64,000 nucleotides of DNA from a virus. Its lineage: Duplodnaviria; Heunggongvirae; Uroviricota; Caudoviricetes. The position numbers and the translations under genes were made by a program. The stretch is taken from positions 29,796 to 93,795 of IMG/VR virus record IMGVR_UViG_3300045988_024527; one strand, written 5' to 3'. The notes beneath the pieces are model-generated. The model ran no database searches and was not told the DNA's origin. It saw only the letters and a list, made by a program, of their open reading frames with translations. Of the stretch, positions 10,042 to 64,000 are shown piece after piece (the first letter of the stretch is position 1; every line of letters starts with the position of its first letter).

Positions 10042-10842
10042 ATGAATATCGATGTAGAAAAGATGCTTGAAGAGAAAGGTGTTGATGAAGCATTCTTAAT
10101 CAATGCCGTAGAAAGCATGGCTATGATTCTTCGTGGGAACAACTACACAGAACAGTTTATGCCTGCAAGCTACAACTTGCCTGAAGACAAGTCTGATAAC
10201 GGTGCTTTTGCAGAACAGGTTAATATGATGTTGACAGACACTACACTTGCTCTGGCATCTATTGCGGTTGGTGTTGATGCACTTGCTGAGTTCATTTTTT
10301 ATGAAATGCAAAAGAATGACTATATCAGGATGTCAGACGAAGATAAGGAACTGTTGCTGACTAAGGACGCTGATTTCATTATTGATACGCTTATCTCATC
10401 AACGAGTGCTGTAATGGCTGCTCTTGAGAAGCGAATGGAAGAGAAGTTGTCACGATATGAAAAACTTGATTGGGGTGTAGAAGAACTAAGCCCACGAATC
10501 AAAGAGATTATACAGCAAACTAAAGATTCTTTGGAAGAAGCTGTTGAAAATGACTCTGTAGCTGATATAGAACCACTTCAGGTGAAAGTTGCACTGATGA
10601 TTCCAGCTATCTCTACGATGATGAATATCGTTGCACTAATCCAGCTTTCACAGATGATGGGTGTGAGTATGGAGTTCATTGAGGAAATGACTGGTGGTGT
10701 TAGTATGCAAGCAATCAATGATGTTTTGGTGAACATTGGTGCTTCAATCATTGAAGAGAAACTACGCATTAACTTCGGTGATGATTTTGTGAAGCAAATC
10801 TCAGCTATGGCTGAAAAAGAGTATGCTGACCAACTGCACTAA
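10042..10842 (+). CDS. hypothetical protein
   Basis: 266 aa ORF. Confidence 0.5.
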   Translation: MNIDVEKMLEEKGVDEAFLINAVESMAMILRGNNYTEQFMPASYNLPEDKSDNGAFAEQVNMMLTDTTLALASIAVGVDALAEFIFYEMQKNDYIRMSDEDKELLLTKDADFIIDTLISSTSAVMAALEKRMEEKLSRYEKLDWGVEELSPRIKEIIQQTKDSLEEAVENDSVADIEPLQVKVALMIPAISTMMNIVALIQLSQMMGVSMEFIEEMTGGVSMQAINDVLVNIGASIIEEKLRINFGDDFVKQISAMAEKEYADQLH

Positions 10843-29783: not shown

Positions 29784-30275
29784 ATGGATAAGGGTTACTT
29801 CGAAAAATACCTAATATACGAACCGGAGACAGGTTTACTAATTTGGAAAGTAACCCTTTGCAATACCGCTATTGCTGGTAATGTTGCTGGCACAAGGTCT
29901 AAGAAGGGTTATATCCAAGTCCAGATAAATAAGAAGAGGTACTATGCACATAATATTGCATGGATTATGTCTGGAGGTGAGATACCAAGTGGATATGAGA
30001 TAGACCACATAGACCTTGATAAATCTAATAATAAGTTGGAGAATTTAAGACTTAGCACAAAATCACAAAATCAGAGGAATAGGGGTATATACAAGAATAA
30101 TAAAACTGGTGTGAAGGGTGTAAGTTTTTGTAAACAAACAGGTCTTTACAAAGCAAGAGTCATGCTTTACCATAAAGAATACTTTTGTGGAAGATTTAAA
30201 ACGGTAGAAGAAGCAAAAGAAGCTGTAATTAAAAAGCGAATAGAACTTCATGGTGAGTTTGCAAGACATAACTAA
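29784..30275 (+). CDS. HNH homing endonuclease with AP2 domain
   Basis: YEPETGLLIW, YAHNIAWIM..IDHIDLDKSNNKLENLR, GVKGVSF AP2-like. Confidence 0.8.
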   Translation: MDKGYFEKYLIYEPETGLLIWKVTLCNTAIAGNVAGTRSKKGYIQVQINKKRYYAHNIAWIMSGGEIPSGYEIDHIDLDKSNNKLENLRLSTKSQNQRNRGIYKNNKTGVKGVSFCKQTGLYKARVMLYHKEYFCGRFKTVEEAKEAVIKKRIELHGEFARHN

Positions 30276-55822: not shown

Positions 55823-57238
55823 ATGAGCGAATTATTTAAACATGCGCACCTTCATGCAGGTCGAACTGAAAATGGTGCTGTAAACCATACTTCATCAATG
55901 TCTGCTCTTGTAGACTTTTACAAAGCTGCTGGTTCAAGCCGTAGCAACGTAGAAATCTTACCAGACCTGTTCTACAAAGCTTTGCGTGAGGATGTTGATG
56001 TTGCAGTTCGTATTTTACTGCATATGCGAGATGTACGAGAAGGTATGGGTGAGCGTAAAGCCTTCAGAACTGTTTTGCTTCAAGCGATTGAAGACAAAGT
56101 TTTAGAGCCTGTACAGGTTCTTCGCATTATGGATAAGAATGCAGAACTTGGTCGTTTTGATGACTTCAAAATCTTCGTAGGTACTCGTTTCGAGACAGAT
56201 GCCTTCAAACATTTAGAAGCAGCATTACTAGACCCTGCAACAGCAGGTTTGGCGGCTAAGTGGTTACCACGAGTCAAACCACGTCATAAGCAGTTTGTAA
56301 AACGTTTCTGCAAGTTTGCCAACTTGAGTGAGAAAGAGTACCGCACACTGTTGTCTGCACTATCTGATACAGTTGAGCAAAAAATCTCTGCTAATGAGTT
56401 TGGTAAGATTGACTACAGTAAGATTCCTTCTCTTGCTGCTGCACGTTACCAAAAGCTGTTTAACCGTAAAGATGGAGAACGTTACAAAGCTTACATCGAG
56501 TCCTTATCAAAAGGTGAGACTAAGATTAACGCTGGTGCTGTTTACCCATACGATGTGATTAAATCTGTCAAGCATGGTAATGCAGATGTTGCTAATGAGC
56601 AGTGGAAAGCACTACCAAACTGGATGGCAGAAGGTGAAAACATCTTGTGTATGTCTGATGTGTCAAGTTCAATGTCTTGGGTGAATTTTGGCTCCATTAC
56701 TGCTCTGGATATTGGTGTATCACTTGCCTTGTATGTAGCAGAACGCAATACAGGTTGCTTTAAGAATGAGTTGATGGTTTATTCAACAAACCCTCACTTC
56801 ATCGAACTGAGTGGTGATTTACGAAACCGTCATCGTCAGGTGATGCAACACGTTGAATATGGCTCAACTAACTTACAAGCAGCTTTTGACCGCATTCTTG
56901 AGACAGGCAAAAGAAACAACTTGACTCAGAAAGATATGCCAAGTAAGCTTATCATCTTCTCCGATATGGAGTTCAATCATGTTGATGGGGCTGATGGTCG
57001 TACAAACTTTGAAGCAATTCAGAGTAAGTACAAAAAAGCTGGATATGAGATGCCACAACTGGTATTCTGGTACTTAGCAAACCGTAATGGTACTTGCGAA
57101 GTGTCTGTTAAGGATAACGGTGTAGCAATGGTATCTGGTTTCTCTCCAGCCACTTTAAAAGCTTTGCTTGGTGGTGAGAAGTTTGACCCAATCAGCGTAA
57201 TGCTCAAAGCAGTAATGATTGACCGTTATATCTGGTAA
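55823..57238 (+). CDS. vWA-like domain protein
   Basis: MIDAS-like CMSDVSSSMS; 471 aa. Confidence 0.5.
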   Translation: MSELFKHAHLHAGRTENGAVNHTSSMSALVDFYKAAGSSRSNVEILPDLFYKALREDVDVAVRILLHMRDVREGMGERKAFRTVLLQAIEDKVLEPVQVLRIMDKNAELGRFDDFKIFVGTRFETDAFKHLEAALLDPATAGLAAKWLPRVKPRHKQFVKRFCKFANLSEKEYRTLLSALSDTVEQKISANEFGKIDYSKIPSLAAARYQKLFNRKDGERYKAYIESLSKGETKINAGAVYPYDVIKSVKHGNADVANEQWKALPNWMAEGENILCMSDVSSSMSWVNFGSITALDIGVSLALYVAERNTGCFKNELMVYSTNPHFIELSGDLRNRHRQVMQHVEYGSTNLQAAFDRILETGKRNNLTQKDMPSKLIIFSDMEFNHVDGADGRTNFEAIQSKYKKAGYEMPQLVFWYLANRNGTCEVSVKDNGVAMVSGFSPATLKALLGGEKFDPISVMLKAVMIDRYIW

Positions 57239-57256: not shown

Positions 57257-57285
57257 TTGACAATGTGTTTAATACCCTTTAATAT
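57257..57285 (+). promoter_or_regulatory. consensus sigma70 promoter upstream of tRNA cluster
   Basis: TTGACA-17 bp-TAATAT. Confidence 0.6.
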
Positions 57286-57403
57286 GTTCTACATAGAAAC
57301 GAAATGAGAGCTTTTCTAAGATACTGAAAAATATTTTAAAAAAGTTCTTGACAATCACTAAAAAATAATGTTAAAGTGGTTACATAGAGTTTGAAAAGTT
57401 TAT

Positions 57404-57480
57404 CTCTGTTTAGCTCAGATTGGTAGAGCGTTCCGTTTGGGGCGGTAAGGCCGGAGGTTCAAGTCCTCCAACAGAGACCA
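57404..57480 (+). tRNA. tRNA-Pro (anticodon UGG), hand-folded
   Basis: acceptor CTCTGTT/AACAGAG, T-arm GGAGG-TTCAAGT-CCTCC, loop TTTGGGG, CCA encoded. Confidence 0.55.
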
Positions 57481-57487
57481 AATTAAT

Positions 57488-57565
57488 GTTCCAGTAGACA
57501 AAATGGTATAGTCACCACTCTTTCAAAGTGGATATCTGAGGGTTCAAATCCCTTCTGGAACGCCA
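57488..57565 (+). tRNA. tRNA-Glu (anticodon UUC), hand-folded
   Basis: acceptor GTTCCAG/CTGGAAC, anticodon stem CCACT/AGTGG loop CTTTCAA, CCA encoded. Confidence 0.55.
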
Positions 57566-57650
57566 GTTTTGACAGAAGACCGATTACAGCAAACAACTTT
57601 TACTTTTCGCGCATAGAAAACATAAAAAGCTTGGTCTGGTCATTAAGAAT

Positions 57651-57727
57651 CGCGGGTATAGAGAAAGGGCGTCTCACATGTCTCATTAGCATGGTAACGG
57701 TTGGTTCGACTCCAACACCCGCCTCCA
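57651..57727 (+). tRNA. tRNA-Met/Ile2 (anticodon CAU) with unpaired 1:72
   Basis: anticodon stem CATGT/GCATG loop CTCATTA, T-arm GTTGG-TTCGACT-CCAAC, C1-C72 mismatch. Confidence 0.45.
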
Positions 57728-57812
57728 AATTTACAGAAGACCGTTTACAGCAAAATTTAATGAAATTTTTAGCGGAAAAAATTGAAAGATACGGTCTGGT
57801 AATACTAAACAT

Positions 57813-57889
57813 GGTTAGGAAGCACATAAGGTATGTGCGGTCGCCTGTTAAGCGAATGGCACAGGGTTCGAGTCCCTGACTAACCGCCA
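57813..57889 (+). tRNA. tRNA-Asn (anticodon GUU)
   Basis: D-arm GCAC-ATAAGGTAT-GTGC, loop CTGTTAA, T-arm CAGGG-TTCGAGT-CCCTG, CCA. Confidence 0.6.
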
Positions 57890-57898
57890 AATTTAAAT

Positions 57899-57986
57899 GT
57901 GTCGTTATCCCGTAGATGGTAGCGGTGGGGACTGTAAATCCCTTGTCATTGAGACTCGGTAGGTTCGACTCCTACACGGCACACCA
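57899..57986 (+). tRNA. tRNA-Tyr (anticodon GUA), class II with long variable arm
   Basis: 88 nt; anticodon loop CTGTAAA; T-arm GTAGG-TTCGACT-CCTAC; CCA. Confidence 0.55.
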
Positions 57987-58008
57987 ATACTTAGCGAGAT
58001 ACTTAGTT

Positions 58009-58437
58009 ATGAGAGATGAAGTATACAAATCACAACTTGGTATGAGTTTAGGAACTGCACAAAACAGACTAGTAAAAGATTTGCTATTCGATTTGATATG
58101 TAAAACAAATCAAAATATATGTTTTCAGTGCGGAAAAGAAATGACTAGGGATGATTTCTCCATCGAGCATAAGATTCCGTGGAGACATAGTGAAAATGCA
58201 AAAGAGCTTTTCTTTTCATTAGATAATATTTCTTATAGTCATCTTAAATGTAATATGAAAGCAGCAAGACCAGCACAGGTATATGATAGGAAGCCTAAAC
58301 CAATTAAACACGGCACTGCACACAGCTACTCTAAAGGTTGTAGATGCGAGGAGTGTAGGCTGGCTAAGAATGCTGAGGGCAGGAAGCACTATAACCCAGA
58401 AAGGCGTAGGAAGAAGTATTTAAGAAATGGTACATAG
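58009..58437 (+). CDS. HNH endonuclease
   Basis: CFQCGKEM..FSIEHKIPW..HLKCN HNH motif; start set after tRNA-Tyr (track ORF 57916 overlaps tRNA). Confidence 0.6.
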   Translation: MRDEVYKSQLGMSLGTAQNRLVKDLLFDLICKTNQNICFQCGKEMTRDDFSIEHKIPWRHSENAKELFFSLDNISYSHLKCNMKAARPAQVYDRKPKPIKHGTAHSYSKGCRCEECRLAKNAEGRKHYNPERRRKKYLRNGT

Positions 58438-58443
58438 GGTTTT

Positions 58444-58519
58444 GGGGTGTTAGTTTAGACGGGTAAAATACTGGATTGTCTCTCCTGAGCCGCGAGTTCG
58501 ATTCTCGCACACCTCGCCA
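58444..58519 (+). tRNA. tRNA, anticodon unresolved (non-canonical anticodon arm; GUC/Asp possible)
   Basis: clear acceptor GGGGTGT/ACACCTC, T-arm GCGAG-TTCGATT-CTCGC and CCA; anticodon stem not clean. Confidence 0.4.
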
Positions 58520-58946
58520 ATTTTGAGAGGGCTATTTAGCCCCTCCCTTAAAGGGTTCTTACGAGTATCCTTTAAAGGAGCAGAAGACCAAATACAGCAA
58601 GTTACTTAAAATTTCAAGCCAATTCAATTTTGAAAAATTTAAAACTTGGTCTGGCTCAACAAATTTACAGAAGACCGTTTACAGCAAAACTTAAACAATC
58701 TATTTCTCCGGTAAAGAAAAGGCGAAGGTTCGATTCCTTCACTCGGCAGATGTCGAGTTGGTGTAATGGTAGCACTTAAGATGATAAACAACGGTCTGGT
58801 AATTATCTTTGTAGATAAGTTATTAAGCTTCCCTGTGAGTATGCGACCACAAAGGTGAAGGGTAAATTCTAGATTTAAACCCAAAAAGGCACATCGCTAC
58901 AGACCTTAAGCAAGTCTGGGTAGCTTATCTACAAAGATAATTTAAT

Positions 58947-59022
58947 GGAAGTGTAGCAGAATGGTGATGCGGCAGACTTTTAATCTGACAGGCGATGGGT
59001 TCGAATCCCTCCACTTCTACCA
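58947..59022 (+). tRNA. tRNA-Lys (anticodon UUU)
   Basis: acceptor GGAAGTG/CACTTCT, anticodon loop CTTTTAA, T-loop TTCGAAT, CCA. Confidence 0.5.
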
Positions 59023-59026
59023 ATAT

Positions 59027-59103
59027 GGTTCAGTCGCAGATAAGGTAATGCAAGGGTCTCATAAGCCCTATGAATGTGGGTTCGATTCCCATCTGAACCT
59101 CCA
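59027..59103 (+). tRNA. tRNA-Met (anticodon CAU)
   Basis: acceptor GGTTCAG/CTGAACC, anticodon stem AGGGT/GCCCT loop CTCATAA, T-arm GTGGG-TTCGATT-CCCAT, CCA. Confidence 0.55.
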
Positions 59104-59111
59104 ATTTATAG

Positions 59112-59606
59112 GTGATACTTATGATTTGTGCTAACAAAGATTGCGGAAATGAAGCCGTTAAAGGTGGAAAATTTTGCTCACGCTCTTGTTCTGCAAAAGT
59201 GAACAACAAGAAACACCCAAAGAGAAGTCAGGAAGGCTCTTGCCATTCATGCGGAAAGGTAACGCCAAAAGCGAGAAAATACTGTGACGAATGTATTGCA
59301 GGTGGAGTCATGAAAAAACATAAGACCCATCATGAAAAAAGCAAAGCCAAATCACTGCACGTTAAAAAGTCTCGTGACAGACTGAAGAAGGCTTTAGTTG
59401 ATTACAAGGGTGGTTGTTGTTCAATTTGTGGTTACAATAGGTGCATAAAGGCTCTAGAGTTTCACCACTTAGACCCTAAGACAAAAGACTTCACAGTAAG
59501 TAAAAAACACTACTCACTGGCTACAATGCAGTCTGAAGTTGATAAGTGTGTCTTGCTTTGTGCAAATTGTCACAGAGAAGTACACGAAGGGGTAACAATG
59601 CTGTGA
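59112..59606 (+). CDS. HNH endonuclease
   Basis: EFHHLDP..CVLLCANCHREVH HNH motif plus N-terminal Cys-rich region. Confidence 0.65.
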   Translation: MILMICANKDCGNEAVKGGKFCSRSCSAKVNNKKHPKRSQEGSCHSCGKVTPKARKYCDECIAGGVMKKHKTHHEKSKAKSLHVKKSRDRLKKALVDYKGGCCSICGYNRCIKALEFHHLDPKTKDFTVSKKHYSLATMQSEVDKCVLLCANCHREVHEGVTML

Positions 59607-59675
59607 AAGCACATATGGATGTGCGTTCGGCTGATAACCGAAAGGCAGAAGGTTCGAATCCTTCTCACAGTACCA
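59600..59675 (+). tRNA. tRNA-Ile (anticodon GAU)
   Basis: D-arm GCAC-ATATGGAT-GTGC, anticodon stem TTCGG/CCGAA loop CTGATAA, T-arm GAAGG-TTCGAAT-CCTTC, CCA; 5' end overlaps HNH stop. Confidence 0.6.
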
Positions 59676-59690
59676 ATTTCAAAAAAGTTG

Positions 59691-59719
59691 TTGACATTGA
59701 GATGTGACTACTTTATAGT
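59691..59719 (+). promoter_or_regulatory. consensus sigma70 promoter
   Basis: TTGACA-17 bp-TATAGT. Confidence 0.55.
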
Positions 59720-59923
59720 AACCTTAGTTTTCGTTGCGTAGCGTCTATTTTGCAAATTTAAAATAAATGCAAACGACAATGTTTTTCTGGCAGTAGCTTG
59801 ATAGGCTAAACACCAGTGAGGTCTTCCAATCCCTCATCAAAGAATTTGGCGTACTCGCCCACGGTATGATTAATAAGGTGGGCATCTTTAAGGGCTTTCT
59901 AAGAGAGTCTTTAAAGATAATTA

Positions 59924-60005
59924 CGGGGCGTATCTCAGCTGTCTTCTAAACAGCCGTTAACCGAGTAAGTGGAGTATGCGGGTTCGAGTCCTGCCGCCTC
60001 GACCA
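59924..60005 (+). tRNA. tRNA-like gene, non-canonical (possible anticodon UCU/Arg; no clear D-arm)
   Basis: acceptor CGGGGCG/CGCCTCG, T-arm GCGGG-TTCGAGT-CCTGC, CCA; stem-loop GCTGT-CTTCTAA-ACAGC. Confidence 0.4.
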
Positions 60006-60060
60006 ATTTTGGAGAAATCATGAAAACTTGTATTAGGTGCAAACTTAGCAAGGATGAATA

Positions 60061-60175
60061 GGTAAGGTGTTGAATGTTAAAAAAAAAAAATCCCATTATT
60101 TGACGAGATAGAAAACAACTCAGTAACAAATGGTGACTCTATCGAGCTAATAAAAAAAGTACAAACTCAATCCGC
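60061..60175 (+). repeat. direct repeat copy 1 (start of plasmid unit; repeated at 63889-64000)
   Basis: GGTAAGGTGTTGAATGTTAAAAA..CCCATTATTTGACGAGATAGAAAACAACTC..GCTC near-identical except poly-A length and one substitution. Confidence 0.85.
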
Positions 60176-60995
60176 TCACTTAATACTGAGTGATATTCCT
60201 TACGGAATAGGAGCTGATGATTGGGATGTACTTCATAAAAACTCGAACAATGCCTATCTAGGTTCAAGCCCCGCACAAAAATCAGCTGGTGCCATTTTCA
60301 AAAAAAGAGGAAAGCCTATAAATGGCTGGTCTGATGCAGATAGAAAAATACCTTTAGAGTATCAACAATGGTGTGAAGAGTGGGCGAGGGAATGGTATCG
60401 TGCCTTAAAACCAGGAGCTAGTGCAATCATTTTCGCTGGTAGGAGATTTTCACACAGATGTATTTGCGCAATGGAAAATGCTGGATTTAACCTCAGAGAT
60501 ATAATCGCATGGATGCGAACAAAAGCTCCTCATCGTGCACAAAGGCTAAGCTGCGTATATGAAAGGCGTGGGGACCAATATAACAAAGAAAAATGGGACG
60601 GCTGGAGGGTTGGAAACTTACAGCCAACATTTGAGCCAATACTATGGTTTTCAAAACCCTACAAAATAGGAGGGACTATTGCTGATAACGTTCTATTGCA
60701 TGGTGTTGGAGCATATAACCAAGATGCGTTCACAGCAAGAAATGGAAAACCTGAAAATGTAATACATGCTGGCTTTGAGAGAAATGAAGGTGGATTACAT
60801 CCAACGCAGAAGCCTGTTTCGCTGATGAAAGCGCTAATAGAACTAACTACTCAAGAAGGACAGCTAGTAATAGATCCATTTAGTGGTAGCGGTTCAACTC
60901 TTGTGGCAGCAAAAGAGCTGGGCAGAAACTATATAGGCTTCGAGTTTAACCCAGCATATGTAGAAATAAGCAAAAAAAGATTAGAAGATAAATAA
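60074..60995 (+). CDS. Type II DNA methyltransferase (amino-MTase, motif IV before motif I); frameshifted in A12 tract
   Basis: motif IV SDIPYG, motif I VIDPFSGSGST; ATG at 60074 is out of frame with the body (frame opens at 60081) because of 12-A run at 60079-60090; in-frame in second copy. Confidence 0.75.
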
Positions 60996-61922
60996 CTACT
61001 TAAGTGACAGTATATTATTATCTGTCACTTTATTTATTTGGTCTATCCTACTGTCTATTTTATGCATTTTTATCAACGCACTGACAGCCTCATCCTTGGT
61101 CATCATTAGCATCCTTGTACGTTCAGAAGATAGAAATTCTATAGCCATTTTTTTTGAAACGGCAATACCCTCAGTTGTGGCTGATTTTTCATCACTCCAA
61201 AGCTCAGCTATCCTACTATCATAGCTTAACATTGTTCTATTTATATTCACCCAATATTGCACACTATCTTTGCTAGGGTTGAGTAAAGATACAGATTTAA
61301 ATATTTCACCAAGAAGGTTTTTACTATCTTCAGTTGTTGCTATAGCTGAATATCTTATGAGAACGGCCAGGTGTGTATATGTAAAAACACAAACATTTCG
61401 CAATATAGCTTGCTGATATATTTGACTTGATTTTGTTGGCAACTGATATATTGGACATACAACCATTGCAAAGTCTTTGGTATTTCTCCAACCATCCATA
61501 GCCTGAACTTTAAAGTCTTTTTGATTTTTTGCAGTTCTACTCAAGCGAAATACTTTGGCATCTGCCACAAATGAATAGCTATCGCAAACAACCTCAACAT
61601 CAGCCGCATCTGCCCTTTCAGTCAAAACAATACTATTTAACCCTAAATATTTAAAACATTCTGATATCAGTGCATCTGTATACTTTGAGTACAGTTTTTC
61701 TTCACTTGAATCATGATCATATGACTCAGGTATTGCTGTGCATAACCTAAGGTGGTCTAGTAATGCTTGACTTCCAGATTTCTTAACCTCATCTATTATT
61801 TCATTTTCAACTCTGCTTGAGTCGTTAACAAAGTGACCACTTAGTTTTACTATTTCATCAATCCAGTAACGCCTTCTTATTATTGCATCTTCAGTAATGA
61901 ATTTAAAATTACATAAGTCCAT
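60996..61922 (-). CDS. putative Type II restriction endonuclease
   Basis: 308 aa ORF convergent and abutting the MTase; possible PD-(D/E)xK-like CD..VADAK; no direct motif proof. Confidence 0.45.
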   Translation of the reverse strand: MDLCNFKFITEDAIIRRRYWIDEIVKLSGHFVNDSSRVENEIIDEVKKSGSQALLDHLRLCTAIPESYDHDSSEEKLYSKYTDALISECFKYLGLNSIVLTERADAADVEVVCDSYSFVADAKVFRLSRTAKNQKDFKVQAMDGWRNTKDFAMVVCPIYQLPTKSSQIYQQAILRNVCVFTYTHLAVLIRYSAIATTEDSKNLLGEIFKSVSLLNPSKDSVQYWVNINRTMLSYDSRIAELWSDEKSATTEGIAVSKKMAIEFLSSERTRMLMMTKDEAVSALIKMHKIDSRIDQINKVTDNNILSLK

Positions 61923-62394
61923 TTTTAATACCCGATATAATTAATCAATAACTCAGTATAATCTCGCGATCATAACAGATTTTTTCATCTGCCGAATAAT
62001 AGAACTATCAGTTTATATGGCTAGAGATTCGCTTGTATTTACCATAACATCCGTTGCGTGCACCGCCTGAGAGGCTCTCAGGGCGTTTCTGACGGGAAAC
62101 CGGTAAAACAGGCAACAAACTACCCGAAAACCCGCCAGAAACGCGCAGGCTCTGTTTTTACGGCATGCATGAGTATGCGCGCAAGTGCATAGCGCGGAAA
62201 TTCACGCCATTCAGCCGGGGTAAGTCCTGTTTCCGTCGTTCTTCCCACCCGAAAACGGTGAACGGGGACGCAATTTATTGCGTGGCCGTGAGGCGTTGCC
62301 GGCACAGCCGGAAAACCCGTTTTCAGCACGTTCAGGAAGGGGGCCGATGTACGAATGGTTCAGGGAACGGATCTGAGGTAATCCGGTAGTTACT

Positions 62395-62525
62395 TTGTAG
62401 TTTATCTGTAGTTTTCTTGTAGTCTATTAGTAGTCCGCCACGGTTTTTGTAGTTTTTTTGTAGTCTGCCATCACTAATGCAAAACGTTTTTTGTAGTTTA
62501 TCTGTAGTTTTTGGTTGCTCAGATG
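62395..62525 (+). repeat. iteron-like direct repeats (TTGTAGTYT units)
   Basis: TTTGTAGTTTATCTGTAGTTTT twice plus degenerate TTGTAGTCT copies. Confidence 0.6.
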
Positions 62526-62808
62526 GTCATGCTTGCATGACCATCAAAGAATAGGACGCTTTTTAGCCAAATACCCCTTAACCTACGGAGAGCGCCCTAC
62601 CAAAAAAGATGATTTTTTATCCCTTAAATGGTCATACACCATACGCAACCGCGATTTTCATCGCAATTGCATGAATTAAAAGGTAAAAACTGAATTTCCC
62701 GTTTATTTATGTAATACGCAACGTATTACAACCACCTGTAATCACATGAAAATAAAGAAATAAGATGTAATACCGGCGTATTACACGTACGCTGACCAGC
62801 GAAAAAAG

Positions 62809-62958
62809 TTATAACGCTTCCCTGCCGACAGGCGGGCCAAAATCCACCGGGGCGTGCAGGTTCTCTTCAGTAACCTGCGCCATTAAATCAAAAAGGTCAT
62901 ATTCGCCGGGAAGCTGCGTATCAGTCGCATCCCGTTGTTCATCATATTCAGATGGCAT
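62809..62958 (-). CDS. small acidic hypothetical protein (plasmid)
   Basis: 49 aa ORF with ATG, just upstream of ori region; weak. Confidence 0.25.
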   Translation of the reverse strand: MPSEYDEQRDATDTQLPGEYDLFDLMAQVTEENLHAPVDFGPPVGREAL

Positions 62959-63029
62959 GGGGTGATATCCAGTAGCTGAAAGGTTGTTAGCGGGTTTCGG
63001 GGCGCAGCCCTGAACCAGTCACGTAGCGC

Positions 63030-63860
63030 TAGCGGAGTGTATCCGAGCTTATTATGTTGGCATGAGTGCGATGATCAGGAAAGTGCTTCATGTGGCAGGA
63101 GAAAAATGCAGCAGCGGAGCGTAAGCAGAATATGCGATACAGGAGATATTCCGCTTCCTCGCTCACTGACTCGCTGCGCTCGGTCGTTCGGCTGCGGCGA
63201 GCGGTACAGGCTTACGGGCGGGGCGGAAGTGTCCGGGAAGATGCCAGGGAGAGACGGAAAAGGGAAGCGAGAAGGTCGCGGCGAAGCCGTTTTTCCATAG
63301 GCTCCGCCCCCCTGACAAGCATCGCGAAATCTGACGCTCAAATCAGTGGTGGCGAAACCCGACAGGACTTAAAGATCCCAGGCGTTTCCCCCTGGTAGCT
63401 CCCTCGTGCGCTCTCCTGTTCCTGCCTTTCGGTTTACCGGTGTCATTCCGCTGTTATGGCCGCGTTTGTCTCATTCCACGCCTGACACTCAGTTCCGGGT
63501 AGGCAGTTCGCTCCAAGCTGGACTGTATGCACGAACCCCCCGTTCAGTCCGACTGCTGCGCCTTGTCCGGTAACTATCGTCTTGAGTCCAACCCGGAAAG
63601 ACACGATAAAACGCCACTGGCAGCAGCCATTGGTAACTGATTTACGGAGCGAAGCGTTAAGTGTAATAGAGTTCTTGAAGTGAGCGGCTTACTACAGCTA
63701 CACTGGAAGGACAAATTAGGTCACTGCGCTCCGTGAAAGCCAGTTACCACGGTTCAGAAGTTCCCCAACTAACTGAACCCTGAAAAAGCCGCCTCCCCAG
63801 GCGGTTTTTTCTTTTCAAAAGGCTACGACGAAAGGTTATCCTGCGTCAAGATAACTTTGG
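63030..63860. other. ColE1/p15A-family plasmid replication origin region
   Basis: long stretches match remembered p15A/pMB1 ori (TTTTCCATAGGCTCCGCCCCCCTGACAAGCATC..GCGTTTCCCCCTGG..GTTCGCTCCAAGCTGG..CACGAACCCCCCGTTCAG). Confidence 0.85.
63711..63808 (+). ncRNA. RNA I-like antisense replication control RNA
   Basis: position and similarity to ColE1/p15A RNA I; ends in terminator GCCGCCTCCCCAGGCGG + TTTTTTC. Confidence 0.6.
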
Positions 63861-63888
63861 TAGTTATAATGAAGTGAATAAACCATTG

Positions 63889-64000
63889 GTAAGGTGTTGA
63901 ATGTTAAAAAAAATCCCATTATTTGACGAGATAGAAAACAACTCCGTAACAAATGGTGACTCTATCGAGCTAATAAAAAAAGTACAAACTCAATCCGCTC
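63889..64000 (+). repeat. direct repeat copy 2 (restart of plasmid unit, MTase 5' end in frame with 8-A tract)
   Basis: matches 60061-60175; ATG at 63899 gives MLKKIPLFDEIENNSVTNGDSIELIKKVQTQSA. Confidence 0.85.

Follow-up and report, generated by a model that had tools for sequence, protein, structure and literature searches.

Small RNA elements beside a Ro60-fold protein gene in the tRNA cluster of a FelixO1-like phage: candidates for a Ro/Y-RNA-type system

The bacterial Y RNAs are among the closest described counterparts of the elements discussed here, and one of them, YrlA, mimics tRNA: a V arm, a T arm, a closed acceptor stem and a D arm follow one another inside a stem formed by pairing of the two ends (PMC4201824). 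The Class I RNAs (RF01414), which are reported to be unique to Dictyostelia, are encoded by multicopy genes and include rare longer members with inserted domains (Kjellin et al., 2021, PMC7919456). They are 42-65 nucleotides (nt) long, begin with (AA)G, and carry directly past the 5′ strand of a 6-base-pair (bp) stem, which is conserved in structure only, the 11-nt sequence CCUUACAGCAA, followed by a variable remainder and a 3′ CUGU, the C of which pairs with the invariant 5′ G (PMC7919456). In phages, the protein gp130 of the Felixounavirus Bas63 has been described as Ro60-like and as countering the Ppl defence; its authors suspected "Y RNAs among the tRNAs" and identified none (PMC11482910). 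A homolog in Listeria phage CKA15 was found in purified virion preparations, where it is grouped with the products of non-structural genes; less than 2 kb upstream of its gene are three unannotated regions with very high transcription (PMC12282133). Here, we describe a 64,000-nt stretch of a virus record of the Caudoviricetes (IMG/VR IMGVR_UViG_3300045988_024527, positions 29,796 to 93,795; hereafter the window), in which a tRNA cluster at 57404-60005 follows the gene of a Ro60-fold protein, an ortholog 97% identical to gp130. Four elements in the spacers of this cluster, E1 to E4, are proposed to be small non-coding RNA genes whose products are partners of that protein, in which case the cluster would house a phage ribonucleoprotein (RNP) system of the Ro/Y-RNA type; we put the probability of this reading at roughly three in four.

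Elements E1 to E4 and the protein encoded upstream

The initial annotation of the cluster had pointed to two motifs reused in its spacers. The first, AGAAGACCnnnTACAGCAA, occurs exactly four times in the 64 kb (57574, 57735, 58582 and 58669), always on the + strand and always in the cluster, where 0.6 copies would be expected; four copies were reached in 0 of 100 shuffles. The full 22-mer around it is exact only at 57733 and 58667, and the other two copies differ at one and six positions. The second motif, GGTCTGGT, lies at 57633, 57793 and 58793, with a variant, GGTCTGGC, at 58648. As an octamer alone it is uninformative in the window (54 matches versus 34 expected at up to one mismatch), and it matters only as the 3′ partner of the first. 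The reuse and the mutual pairing of the motifs are thus real, while the third coordinate of the first motif had been placed about 5 nt off; for the second motif, three of the positions had been given nearly correctly, and the copy placed at 58636 was found at 58648. Both motifs are kept in relatives (Felixounavirus, Mooglevirus and a Yersinia phage); their absence there would, by its own terms, have refuted the initial annotation.

The pairing partner, (C/U)GGUCUGG(U/C), lies 45-115 nt past each copy of the first motif. AGACCGxx pairs with xxCGGUCU, the sixth pair being G-U in E1, G-C in E2, A-U in E3 and G-C in E4. In the orthologs of Citrobacter phage Moogle, stem pairs change from A-U to G-U and from C-G to U-G; such changes are tolerated in RNA only. 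Each element has the layout A(A)G, a terminal stem of 6-8 bp, UUACAGCAA, a variable loop, the returning stem strand and CUG(G)U. In E1 to E4 the two ends pair into a terminal stem of 7-8 bp, and the conserved motif is AGACC(G/A)nnUACAGCAA. All four are encoded on the strand of the Ro60-fold gene, with starts 336-1431 nt downstream of it. Three of them, E1 to E3, are 67-75 nt long and have AU-rich loops; in relatives of E1 the stem and the motif are retained and the loop is swapped.

57574-57641, + strand: E1, short Y-like and Class I-like RNA; 5′ strand AAGACCGA at 57576-57583, UUACAGCAA at 57584-57592, variable loop, 3′ strand UUGGUCUGGU at 57631-57640
57735-57801, + strand: E2, short Y-like and Class I-like RNA; 5′ strand AAGACCGU, UUACAGCAA at 57745-57753, loop, ACGGUCUGGU at 57791-57800
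58582-58656, + strand: E3, short Y-like RNA; AAGACCAA, AUACAGCAA at 58592-58600, loop, UUGGUCUGGC at 58646-58655
58669-58802, + strand: E4, long Y-like RNA (about 130 nt) with a tRNA-like module in YrlA order

The fourth element shares its termini with the other three and encloses a tRNA-like module (58690-58780), which had been overlooked in the fourth spacer. The minimum free energy fold of E4 gives every helix:

58672-58679 and 58790-58797, + strand: 5′ and 3′ strands of the P1 stem
58679-58687, + strand: conserved motif
58690-58694 and 58776-58780, + strand: "anticodon-stem" strand CUUAA and its partner UUAAG
58703-58719, + strand: V arm, stem-loop UUUCU-CCGGUAA-AGAAA
58724-58740, + strand: perfect T arm, GAAGG-UUCGAUU-CCUUC
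58741-58758, + strand: acceptor-like stem of 7 bp with a 4-nt loop, ACUCGGC-AGAU-GUCGAGU
58761-58775, + strand: D arm, GUGU-AAUGGUA-GCAC

This order of V arm, T arm, closed acceptor stem and D arm within an end-paired stem is the layout of YrlA and the Y RNAs. Thirteen sequence variants of E4 occur among related contigs, with compensatory changes in the acceptor-like stem (ACUCGGC/GUCGAGU, ACACG/CGUGU and ACCCUUC-G-CCA-AACA-GAAGGGU) and in the V stem (UUUCU/AGAAA and CUUUC/GAGAG), and some variants encode G-CCA past the 3′ acceptor strand. Twenty long elements, drawn from Felixounaviruses, a mycobacteriophage and metagenomic phages, were aligned with MAFFT (A3); in this alignment, 82% of the stem cells are paired versus 42-50% in slid controls, and both sides change in 22 of the 34 pairs. 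The Rfam tRNA model matches E4 partially, at 22 bits.

The gene directly upstream of the cluster, which the initial annotation had also passed over, ends 166 nt ahead of the first tRNA gene.

55823-57238, + strand: gene of a Ro60-fold protein of 471 aa, the presumed partner of the small RNAs; Pfam DUF2828 and DUF7788, PHROG 850

Its product matches DUF2828 and DUF7788 with E-values of 1.5e-29 and 5.4e-43, and PHROG 850, "RNA-binding protein", with 1.8e-182. An AlphaFold2 model based on a 60-sequence alignment reached a mean predicted local distance difference test (pLDDT) score of 89.2, the single-sequence model 43. When the model was compared with the PDB by Foldseek, Ro60/TROVE structures took all of the first eight places, with full-length alignments (E 2.7e-8 to 2.8e-6; template modelling score 0.54-0.66), followed by isolated von Willebrand factor A domains. 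Homologs are present in at least 710 phage records, and those of mycobacteriophages, at 33-35% identity, are annotated as "Ro-like RNA binding protein".

An RNA family linked to DUF2828 genes

E1 and E2 match the Rfam model Dicty_Class_I_RNA weakly (19.7 and 16.9 bits), and distant DUF2828 loci were therefore inspected. The layout A(A)G, stem, CAGCAA, loop, stem, CUGU adjoins DUF2828 genes in unrelated phages. In Aeromonas phage 4_4572, eight elements stand in tandem beside the DUF2828 gene, with no tRNA genes in between; further elements adjoin the gene in Vibrio phage BUCT194, Campylobacter CP30A, a Listeria P100-like phage, a Staphylococcus phage and Yersinia phage P778, and in Mycobacterium phage Lolly9 they follow in the order short, YrlA-like, short. 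Sites that combine the stem with CAGCAA number 88 on the gene strand, whereas the opposite strand has 24 and shuffled sequence about 21; the sites are concentrated within about 500 nt of the ends of the DUF2828 genes. The seed alignment of 43 elements (A2, made with MAFFT) is gap-free at both ends. Three positions that the detector did not require, G7, C87 and G89, are kept by at least 90% of its sequences, and 90% of its stem cells are paired versus 33-45% in slid controls.

A covariance model built from the phage-element seed (R1) gave 99 matches at E<=1 in 56 of the 85 viral DUF2828 loci, and 85 matches at E<=0.1 in 53 of 80 loci of bacteria or metagenome-assembled genomes (MAGs) outside the seed; every one of the 184 lies on the gene strand. 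The bacterial and MAG matches are nearly all upstream of the gene, more than half of them within about 400 nt of its start. The window elements score 38.2 (E1), 46.6 (E2) and 42.4 bits (E3), and the 5′ part of E4 scores 18.1 bits. A further R1 match at 10500-10561 (20.5 bits, E 0.014) falls inside a 266-aa open reading frame (ORF; 10042-10842) and is probably due to chance; many single matches in unrelated contigs, returned by a pattern scan of viral contigs, were likewise taken as chance and set aside.

Longer members of the family (95-165 nt; loci L082, L084, L088, L089 and L091, and L118, L119, L134, L141 and L148) retain the terminal stem and the CAGCAA motif around other conserved inserts, for example CCUUUCUGGAGGGGAAAGCAAAAACUCGCCAAA, which suggests that they include several classes of effector module. 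With these other inserted modules, the family is therefore modular, as Y RNAs are.

Two individual loci are also worth recording. The element of BUCT194 (L075:2020-2300) is of the YrlA type (T arm, CUUCCCC-G-CCA ... GGGGAAG, D arm) and appears to hold a second complete tRNA-like unit (GGACAGU...ACUGUCC) in its acceptor loop; the nested unit is read by Rfam as a 115-nt "tRNA". In Listeria phage vB_Liva_VAfA18, a match to the ROOL RNA (L073:927-1478; 89.8 bits, gathering score 99.1), with three CAGCAA-type elements next to it, precedes the Ro-like gene by about 1 kb, and a gene for an RtcB-like "tRNA splicing ligase" follows about 1.2 kb downstream.

The elements of the window sit 8-13 nt from tRNA ends and are closed by a stem, and E4 adjoins a long hairpin of a kind typical of RNase III substrates:

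58801-58942, + strand: long hairpin between E4 and tRNA-Lys; near-perfect stem of 19-22 bp around about 100 nt (inverted repeat I1), folding z -5.7

The stem of this hairpin covaries in Moogle (GTAGATAAG/CTTATCTAC to GCAGTGAC/GTTACTGC), where the interior is replaced. It has no Rfam match and could be a processing stem of the RNase III type or a further RNA. These features would suit motifs that act solely as cis-acting processing signals, namely RNase III, RNase E or RNase P hairpins at which the polycistronic precursor is divided into its tRNAs and whose excised pieces have no function of their own. That explanation is unlikely, because the elements track the DUF2828 gene and not tRNA genes, and they form tandem arrays without intervening tRNAs in Aeromonas phage 4_4572, in Listeria and Staphylococcus phages and in Lolly9. 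Within the cluster itself, most tRNA junctions lack an element; the 9-nt single-stranded motif and the defined 5′ and 3′ ends are kept across phyla; and E4 holds a complete tRNA-like fold with covariation. Since the same elements occur at DUF2828 loci of unrelated phages and bacteria, often with no adjacent tRNA gene, the motifs that had been taken for spacer or processing hairpins are better regarded as the termini of independent small-RNA genes. The initial observation was largely right, and its interpretation was too modest.

It is hardly credible that the repeats act at the level of DNA, as targets of homing endonucleases, sites of tRNA-gene recombination or phage promoter/operator sites. 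Two HNH genes do interrupt the cluster, which is mosaic in relatives, and TTTACA in the motif resembles a -35 hexamer; however, the confinement of the R1 matches to the gene strand, the covariation of paired positions through G-U intermediates, the lack of a conserved -10 element at a fixed distance and the occurrence of elements in loci without an annotated HNH gene all oppose such a role. Alternatively, the elements might have lost their function, as tRNA genes in decay or as spacers left from duplication, and their likeness to Class I RNAs would be fortuitous. The tRNA-like halves of E4 would fit decay, as would Rfam scores under the gathering thresholds (16.9-31.2 versus 41.5 bits for RF01414, at most 39 versus 69 bits for RF02553). 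It is nevertheless very improbable: architecture, motif and ends are kept, with compensatory changes, in phages of Proteobacteria, Firmicutes, Actinobacteria and Campylobacterota and in bacterial MAGs, and a covariance model made from Dictyostelium sequences only (R2, described below) preferentially matches the elements.

Several points weigh against E1 to E4 as RNA partners of the Ro60-fold protein. E1 to E3 fold no more stably than shuffled sequence (z -0.4 to -1.5), and the case for them is therefore a wholly comparative one. The stems of A2 were selected for pairing, which makes its covariation numbers partly circular; no such circularity affects the strand bias, the positions, the conserved ends or the bacterial replicate. 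About one third of the DUF2828 loci, in the viral and bacterial sets together, have no match in the R1 scan. The Ro-binding motif is GNCGAAN0-1G in bacteria and a bulged helix with GGUCCGA in animals, and E1 to E4 contain no GNCGAA. The Rfam YrlA model, with a gathering score of 69 bits, finds no match in the window even at E<=10, E4 included; it does match homologous elements in Lolly9 (37.7 bits), L098 (39.2 bits), L149 (28.7 bits, over the full length) and BUCT194 (25.6 bits). Finally, a sequence search of the 471-aa protein against the PDB gave nothing significant with the single sequence and, with a profile, Ro60 only at E=0.91, so that the proposed relation to Ro60 rests on the fold of the model.

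Upstream of the cluster are two promoter-like sites, which are read as driving the tRNA and small-RNA genes:

57257-57285, + strand: sigma70-like promoter, TTGACA-17-TAATAT, 10/12 positions
57348-57377, + strand: sigma70-like promoter, TTGACA-18-TAAAGT, 10/12 positions

No terminator-like sites were found on the + strand within the cluster. We infer how E1 to E4 might be processed, bound by the protein and put to use. The RNAs would be co-transcribed with the tRNAs from the two early sigma70-type promoters and freed, like the tRNAs that flank them, by RNase P and 3′ trimming. The protein-binding module would combine the terminal stem, UUACAGCAA as a single strand next to it, and the conserved termini, A(A)G at the 5′ end and CUG(G)U at the 3′ end; the variable effector module would be the AU-rich loop in E1 to E3 or the tRNA mimic in E4. 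By analogy with Rsr/Y RNA/polynucleotide phosphorylase (PNPase) and with phiRo60/Yrl/PNPase, the RNP most likely tethers or blocks host enzymes that handle RNA, for which E4 may serve as a tRNA-shaped handle or decoy. The CCA-containing acceptor loops of many relatives suggest that RNase P could open the module and so yield a tRNA-like molecule in two pieces. Anti-defence or the control of RNA turnover is the probable biological role; help against host defence is proposed because Bas63 gp130 counters Ppl.

The spacer motifs probably mark a new and widespread variant of the Ro/Y-RNA systems, and the RNA family is previously undescribed. It provides candidate RNA partners, not located before, for the Ro60-like protein of those 710 or more phage records. 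As a large family that is easily searched for by its terminal stem and CAGCAA, and whose modular inserts include tRNA mimics, it opens a direct route to biochemistry, that is, to binding assays, structures and partners.

The tRNA genes and the tag region

The window region that holds these features is 93-97% identical to FelixO1-like phages (Felixounavirus). ARAGORN called nine tRNA genes, and the Rfam tRNA model adds a tenth at 59924-60002 (31.2 bits versus a gathering score of 29), in agreement with the ten tRNA-like genes reported at the outset. The nine, with the two endonuclease ORFs that interrupt them, are as follows:

57404-57480, + strand: tRNA-Pro(TGG), canonical; ARAGORN, Rfam 57.5 bits
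57488-57565, + strand: tRNA-Glu(TTC), canonical; ARAGORN, Rfam 56.8 bits
57651-57727, + strand: tRNA-Met-like gene (CAT), atypical, with a C1:C72 mismatch and U37; called by ARAGORN only
57813-57889, + strand: tRNA-Asn(GTT); ARAGORN, Rfam
57899-57986, + strand: tRNA-Tyr(GTA); ARAGORN, Rfam
58009-58437, + strand: HNH homing-endonuclease ORF inserted in the cluster; from the ORF list, weak Pfam HNH match (20 bits), annotated as HNH endonuclease here in relatives
58444-58519, + strand: tRNA-Asp(GTC), canonical; ARAGORN, Rfam 52.8 bits
58947-59022, + strand: tRNA-Lys(TTT); ARAGORN, Rfam 54.4 bits
59027-59103, + strand: tRNA-Met(CAT); ARAGORN, Rfam 55.6 bits
59121-59606, + strand: second HNH-type endonuclease ORF; from the ORF list, garuso ortholog annotated as HNH endonuclease
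59600-59675, + strand: tRNA-Ile(GAT); ARAGORN, Rfam 59.7 bits

The gene at 58444, for which neither a clean anticodon nor a D arm had been recognized, has a complete cloverleaf and is an ordinary tRNA-Asp. The Met-like gene at 57651 receives no score from the Rfam tRNA model; it is kept in relatives, including Yersinia phage P778, and its T stem shows compensatory variants (GTTGG/CCAAC, GCAGG/CCTGC and GTAGG/CCTAC). The two HNH ORFs vary in presence among relatives, which explains most of the differences in cluster length. Phage DNA stops at about 60058, some 53 nt past the last tRNA-like gene and within the start of an HNH gene, so that a contig end truncates the cluster; in relatives, about 14 further tRNA genes follow. 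The rest of the window (60059-64000) is a small ColE1-type Escherichia coli plasmid of about 3.8 kb that encodes a restriction-modification pair, a DNA methyltransferase and an endonuclease of the HindIII family, as well as RNAI (63712-63813). The window is thus a join of two replicons or contigs.

The last part of the phage DNA has features of transfer-messenger RNA (tmRNA), a context of the gene at 59924 that had not been noticed:

59691-59923, + strand: promoter (59691-59719, 11/12 positions) and conserved structured leader of about 200 nt
59769-59801, + strand: tag ORF in the leader, ANDNVFLAVA*, GCA AAC GAC AAT GTT TTT CTG GCA GTA GCT TGA
59924-60005, + strand: non-canonical tRNA-like gene resembling the tRNA-like domain of tmRNA; acceptor stem with G3:U70, A73, CCA; T arm at 59978-59994

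In the leader, AAAAUAAAU precedes the GCA resume codon of the tag, and the Rfam tmRNA model matches at 16 bits (E 1.2e-4; gathering score 47), with high posterior probability over AAAAUAAAUGCAAACGACAA. ARAGORN, which makes no tmRNA call in the window, reports the identical tag ANDNVFLAVA in Moogle. Relatives show three kinds of substitution in the tag, a synonymous one (GAC to GAT), an exchange of one stop codon for another (TGA to TAA) and a conservative one (V to A), and a T-arm-like hairpin at 59818-59840 shows compensatory changes in L066. Counterparts of the leader lie at L158:1500-1730 and L157:7430-7690, and lambdoid E. coli prophages have a homologous tag region, ANEEMYLAVA, in the leader of their late genes, flanked by the genes for the Q antiterminator and the holin. 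Weaker matches were also seen on many plasmids.

The gene at 59924 is non-canonical, as had been noted: the acceptor stem and the T arm are perfect, the D arm is absent and ARAGORN does not call it. Its acceptor pairs run C1-G72, G2-C71 and G3:U70 onward. G3:U70, A73 and CCA form the alanine identity set recognized by alanyl-tRNA synthetase. Four nucleotides replace the D arm, where 15 would be expected, and about 20-23 extra nt precede the T arm as a tmRNA-like segment (59955-59977). The anticodon-like hairpin GCUGU-CUUCUAA-ACAGC (59938-59954) shows a compensatory change from U-A to G-C in 11 related loci, and in Moogle the same hairpin is the anticodon arm of the orthologous gene, a canonical tRNA-Arg(TCT). 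The 3′ half aligns with the 3′ end of E. coli ssrA at a score of 39, versus 14-28 for other phage tRNAs and reached by 0 of 500 shuffles; the likeness of the 5′ end to ssrA is not significant, its score being reached by 278 of 500 shuffles. A pairing of the gene with the leader (CGAGUA with UACUCG) was considered and rejected, since many relatives have UACUAG with no compensating change.

The locus resembles tmRNA (RF00023) in its A-rich region followed by a GCA resume codon, in the likeness of the 10-residue ANDNVFLAVA, which closes with hydrophobic residues and a stop codon, to ANDENYALAA, and in an acceptor stem with G3:U70, A73, CCA, T arm and pre-T-arm segment as in the 3′ end of E. coli ssrA. 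It differs in that both acceptor strands lie 3′ of the tag, which is neither the standard nor the known permuted order, and RNase P would therefore separate the tag RNA from the tRNA-like domain; moreover, a 17-nt anticodon hairpin of the tRNA-Arg type replaces the P2/pseudoknot connection. On these sequence features, 59924 appears to be a tmRNA-derived tRNA-like domain with alanine identity behind an SsrA-like tag region, and 59691-60005 is regarded as a candidate for a rearranged tmRNA-derived locus.

The tag also bears on the reading of E4: the two might instead belong to one permuted tmRNA in two pieces, with E4 as the acceptor piece and the tag at 59769-59801 as the coding piece. ARAGORN proposes such a molecule in Moogle ("tmRNA* tag ANDNVFLAVA", L157:6882-7630) by joining the E4 ortholog to a tag 620 nt downstream, across tRNA-Lys, tRNA-Met and tRNA-Ile; the published genome announcements of Moogle and Mushroom report an ssrA gene; and E4 has the order T arm, 3′ acceptor strand, linker and 5′ acceptor strand, with G-CCA in some variants. 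Nevertheless, this assignment is highly unlikely. E4 lacks the alanine identity pair G3:U70 in all three of its variant classes, whereas a better candidate domain, with G3:U70, A73 and CCA, follows the tag directly at 59924. The gap between E4 and the tag, about 0.6 to 1.0 kb, holds three canonical tRNA genes, in this phage an HNH gene, and a dedicated promoter. In addition, the termini and the motif of E4 are common to E1 to E3, and its architectural relatives occur in loci where no tag was seen, tags not having been searched for systematically. The "permuted tmRNA" or ssrA of Moogle is thus probably a mis-annotation that recurs in FelixO1-like genomes; annotation pipelines label such loci wrongly as "permuted tmRNA", as "tRNA-OTHER" or as small hypothetical ORFs.

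Comparison with Y RNAs, permuted tRNAs and Class I RNAs

E1 to E4, read as partners of the Ro60-fold protein, share several traits with the Y RNA systems. As with Y RNAs and YrlA (RF02553; Chen et al., 2014, PMC4201824), the RNA genes stand on the same strand as the gene of a ring-shaped Ro60-fold protein and no more than a few kb from it, the usual limit for Y RNAs being about 4 kb, and as in other Y RNA systems, including Thermus phage phiRo60 with Yrl1/2 (PMC12135203), each locus encodes several RNAs. The two ends of each RNA form a stem with one another, and a conserved motif adjoins this stem. One RNA of the locus, here E4 only, has a tRNA-like domain in the YrlA order, and E1 to E3 resemble YrlB-type RNAs, which lack such a domain. 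The CCA in some acceptor loops is consistent with the RNase P cleavage shown for the YrlA of M. smegmatis. On the other hand, the partner belongs to Pfam DUF2828/DUF7788 instead of TROVE, and the motif is (U)UACAGCAA with A(A)G...CUGU ends instead of GNCGAAN0-1G. The short members, of about 60 nt, have an unstructured loop, and the RNAs are interleaved with genuine tRNA genes.

E4 also recalls the circularly permuted tRNA genes of Cyanidioschyzon merolae and others, in that the T arm and 3′ acceptor strand, which make up the 3′ half, come ahead of the 5′ acceptor strand and D arm, which make up the 5′ half. By contrast with those genes, E4 has neither an anticodon arm nor a bulge-helix-bulge (BHB) motif, and its ends are joined by the motif-bearing P1 stem. 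To our knowledge, bacteria lack the splicing endonuclease pathway. E4 is organized as a Y-RNA tRNA mimic and not as a decoding tRNA.

The likeness to the Class I RNAs of Dictyostelium extends to detail. Both have a short terminal stem with a conserved closing G-C pair (G7-C87, in at least 90% of sequences) and inner pairs free to vary. UUACAGCAA, present in E1, E2 and E4, matches 9 of the 11 positions of CCUUACAGCAA; E3 has AUACAGCAA in its place. All of the near-invariant Dictyostelium positions (U3, C6, C9, A10 and A11) are matched. The sequence context at the putative ends, AAG...CUGGU in the window and AAG...CUGU in most relatives, at lengths of 47-80 nt, would suit the ends of Class I RNAs. 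R2, built from 28 D. discoideum sequences, was run over 675 kb, and 12 of its 15 best matches coincide with R1 elements, which make up about 0.5% of the search space. Its scores are weak (24.4 bits at best, 13.7 bits for E2), the model being too species-specific for strong scores, and only the placement of its matches is therefore informative. RF01414 itself gives 28-31.2 bits at L070, L075 and L121, under its gathering score of 41.5. The differences are that Class I RNAs are eukaryotic, with genes of the RNA polymerase III type and a Dictyostelium upstream sequence element (DUSE) promoter, whereas the window elements belong to an enterobacterial phage with sigma70-type promoters; that their known direct binder is the RNA recognition motif protein Rnp1A/CIBP, no Ro-like partner being known; and that the window copies end in CUGGU and fall, at 19.7 and 16.9 bits, below the same gathering score. 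Within the body of literature searched, no paper links Class I RNAs to Y RNAs, Ro60 or phages. DUF2828 occurs in eukaryotes, and DDB_G0281243, one of four proteins pulled down with the Class I RNA DdR-21, has no assigned function.

It is tempting to speculate, with the balance still tilted against the idea, that Class I RNAs belong to the same RNA family as the phage and bacterial elements and that their core partner is then a Ro60-like protein of the DUF2828 type. Such an unexpected link to an orphan eukaryotic RNA class can be tested, and it would supply a hypothesis for the function of an abundant and developmentally important class, which has been an open question for some 20 years. If the idea is right, Class I RNAs represent a second, Y-RNA-like branch of the Ro RNPs that is common to viruses, bacteria and eukaryotes.

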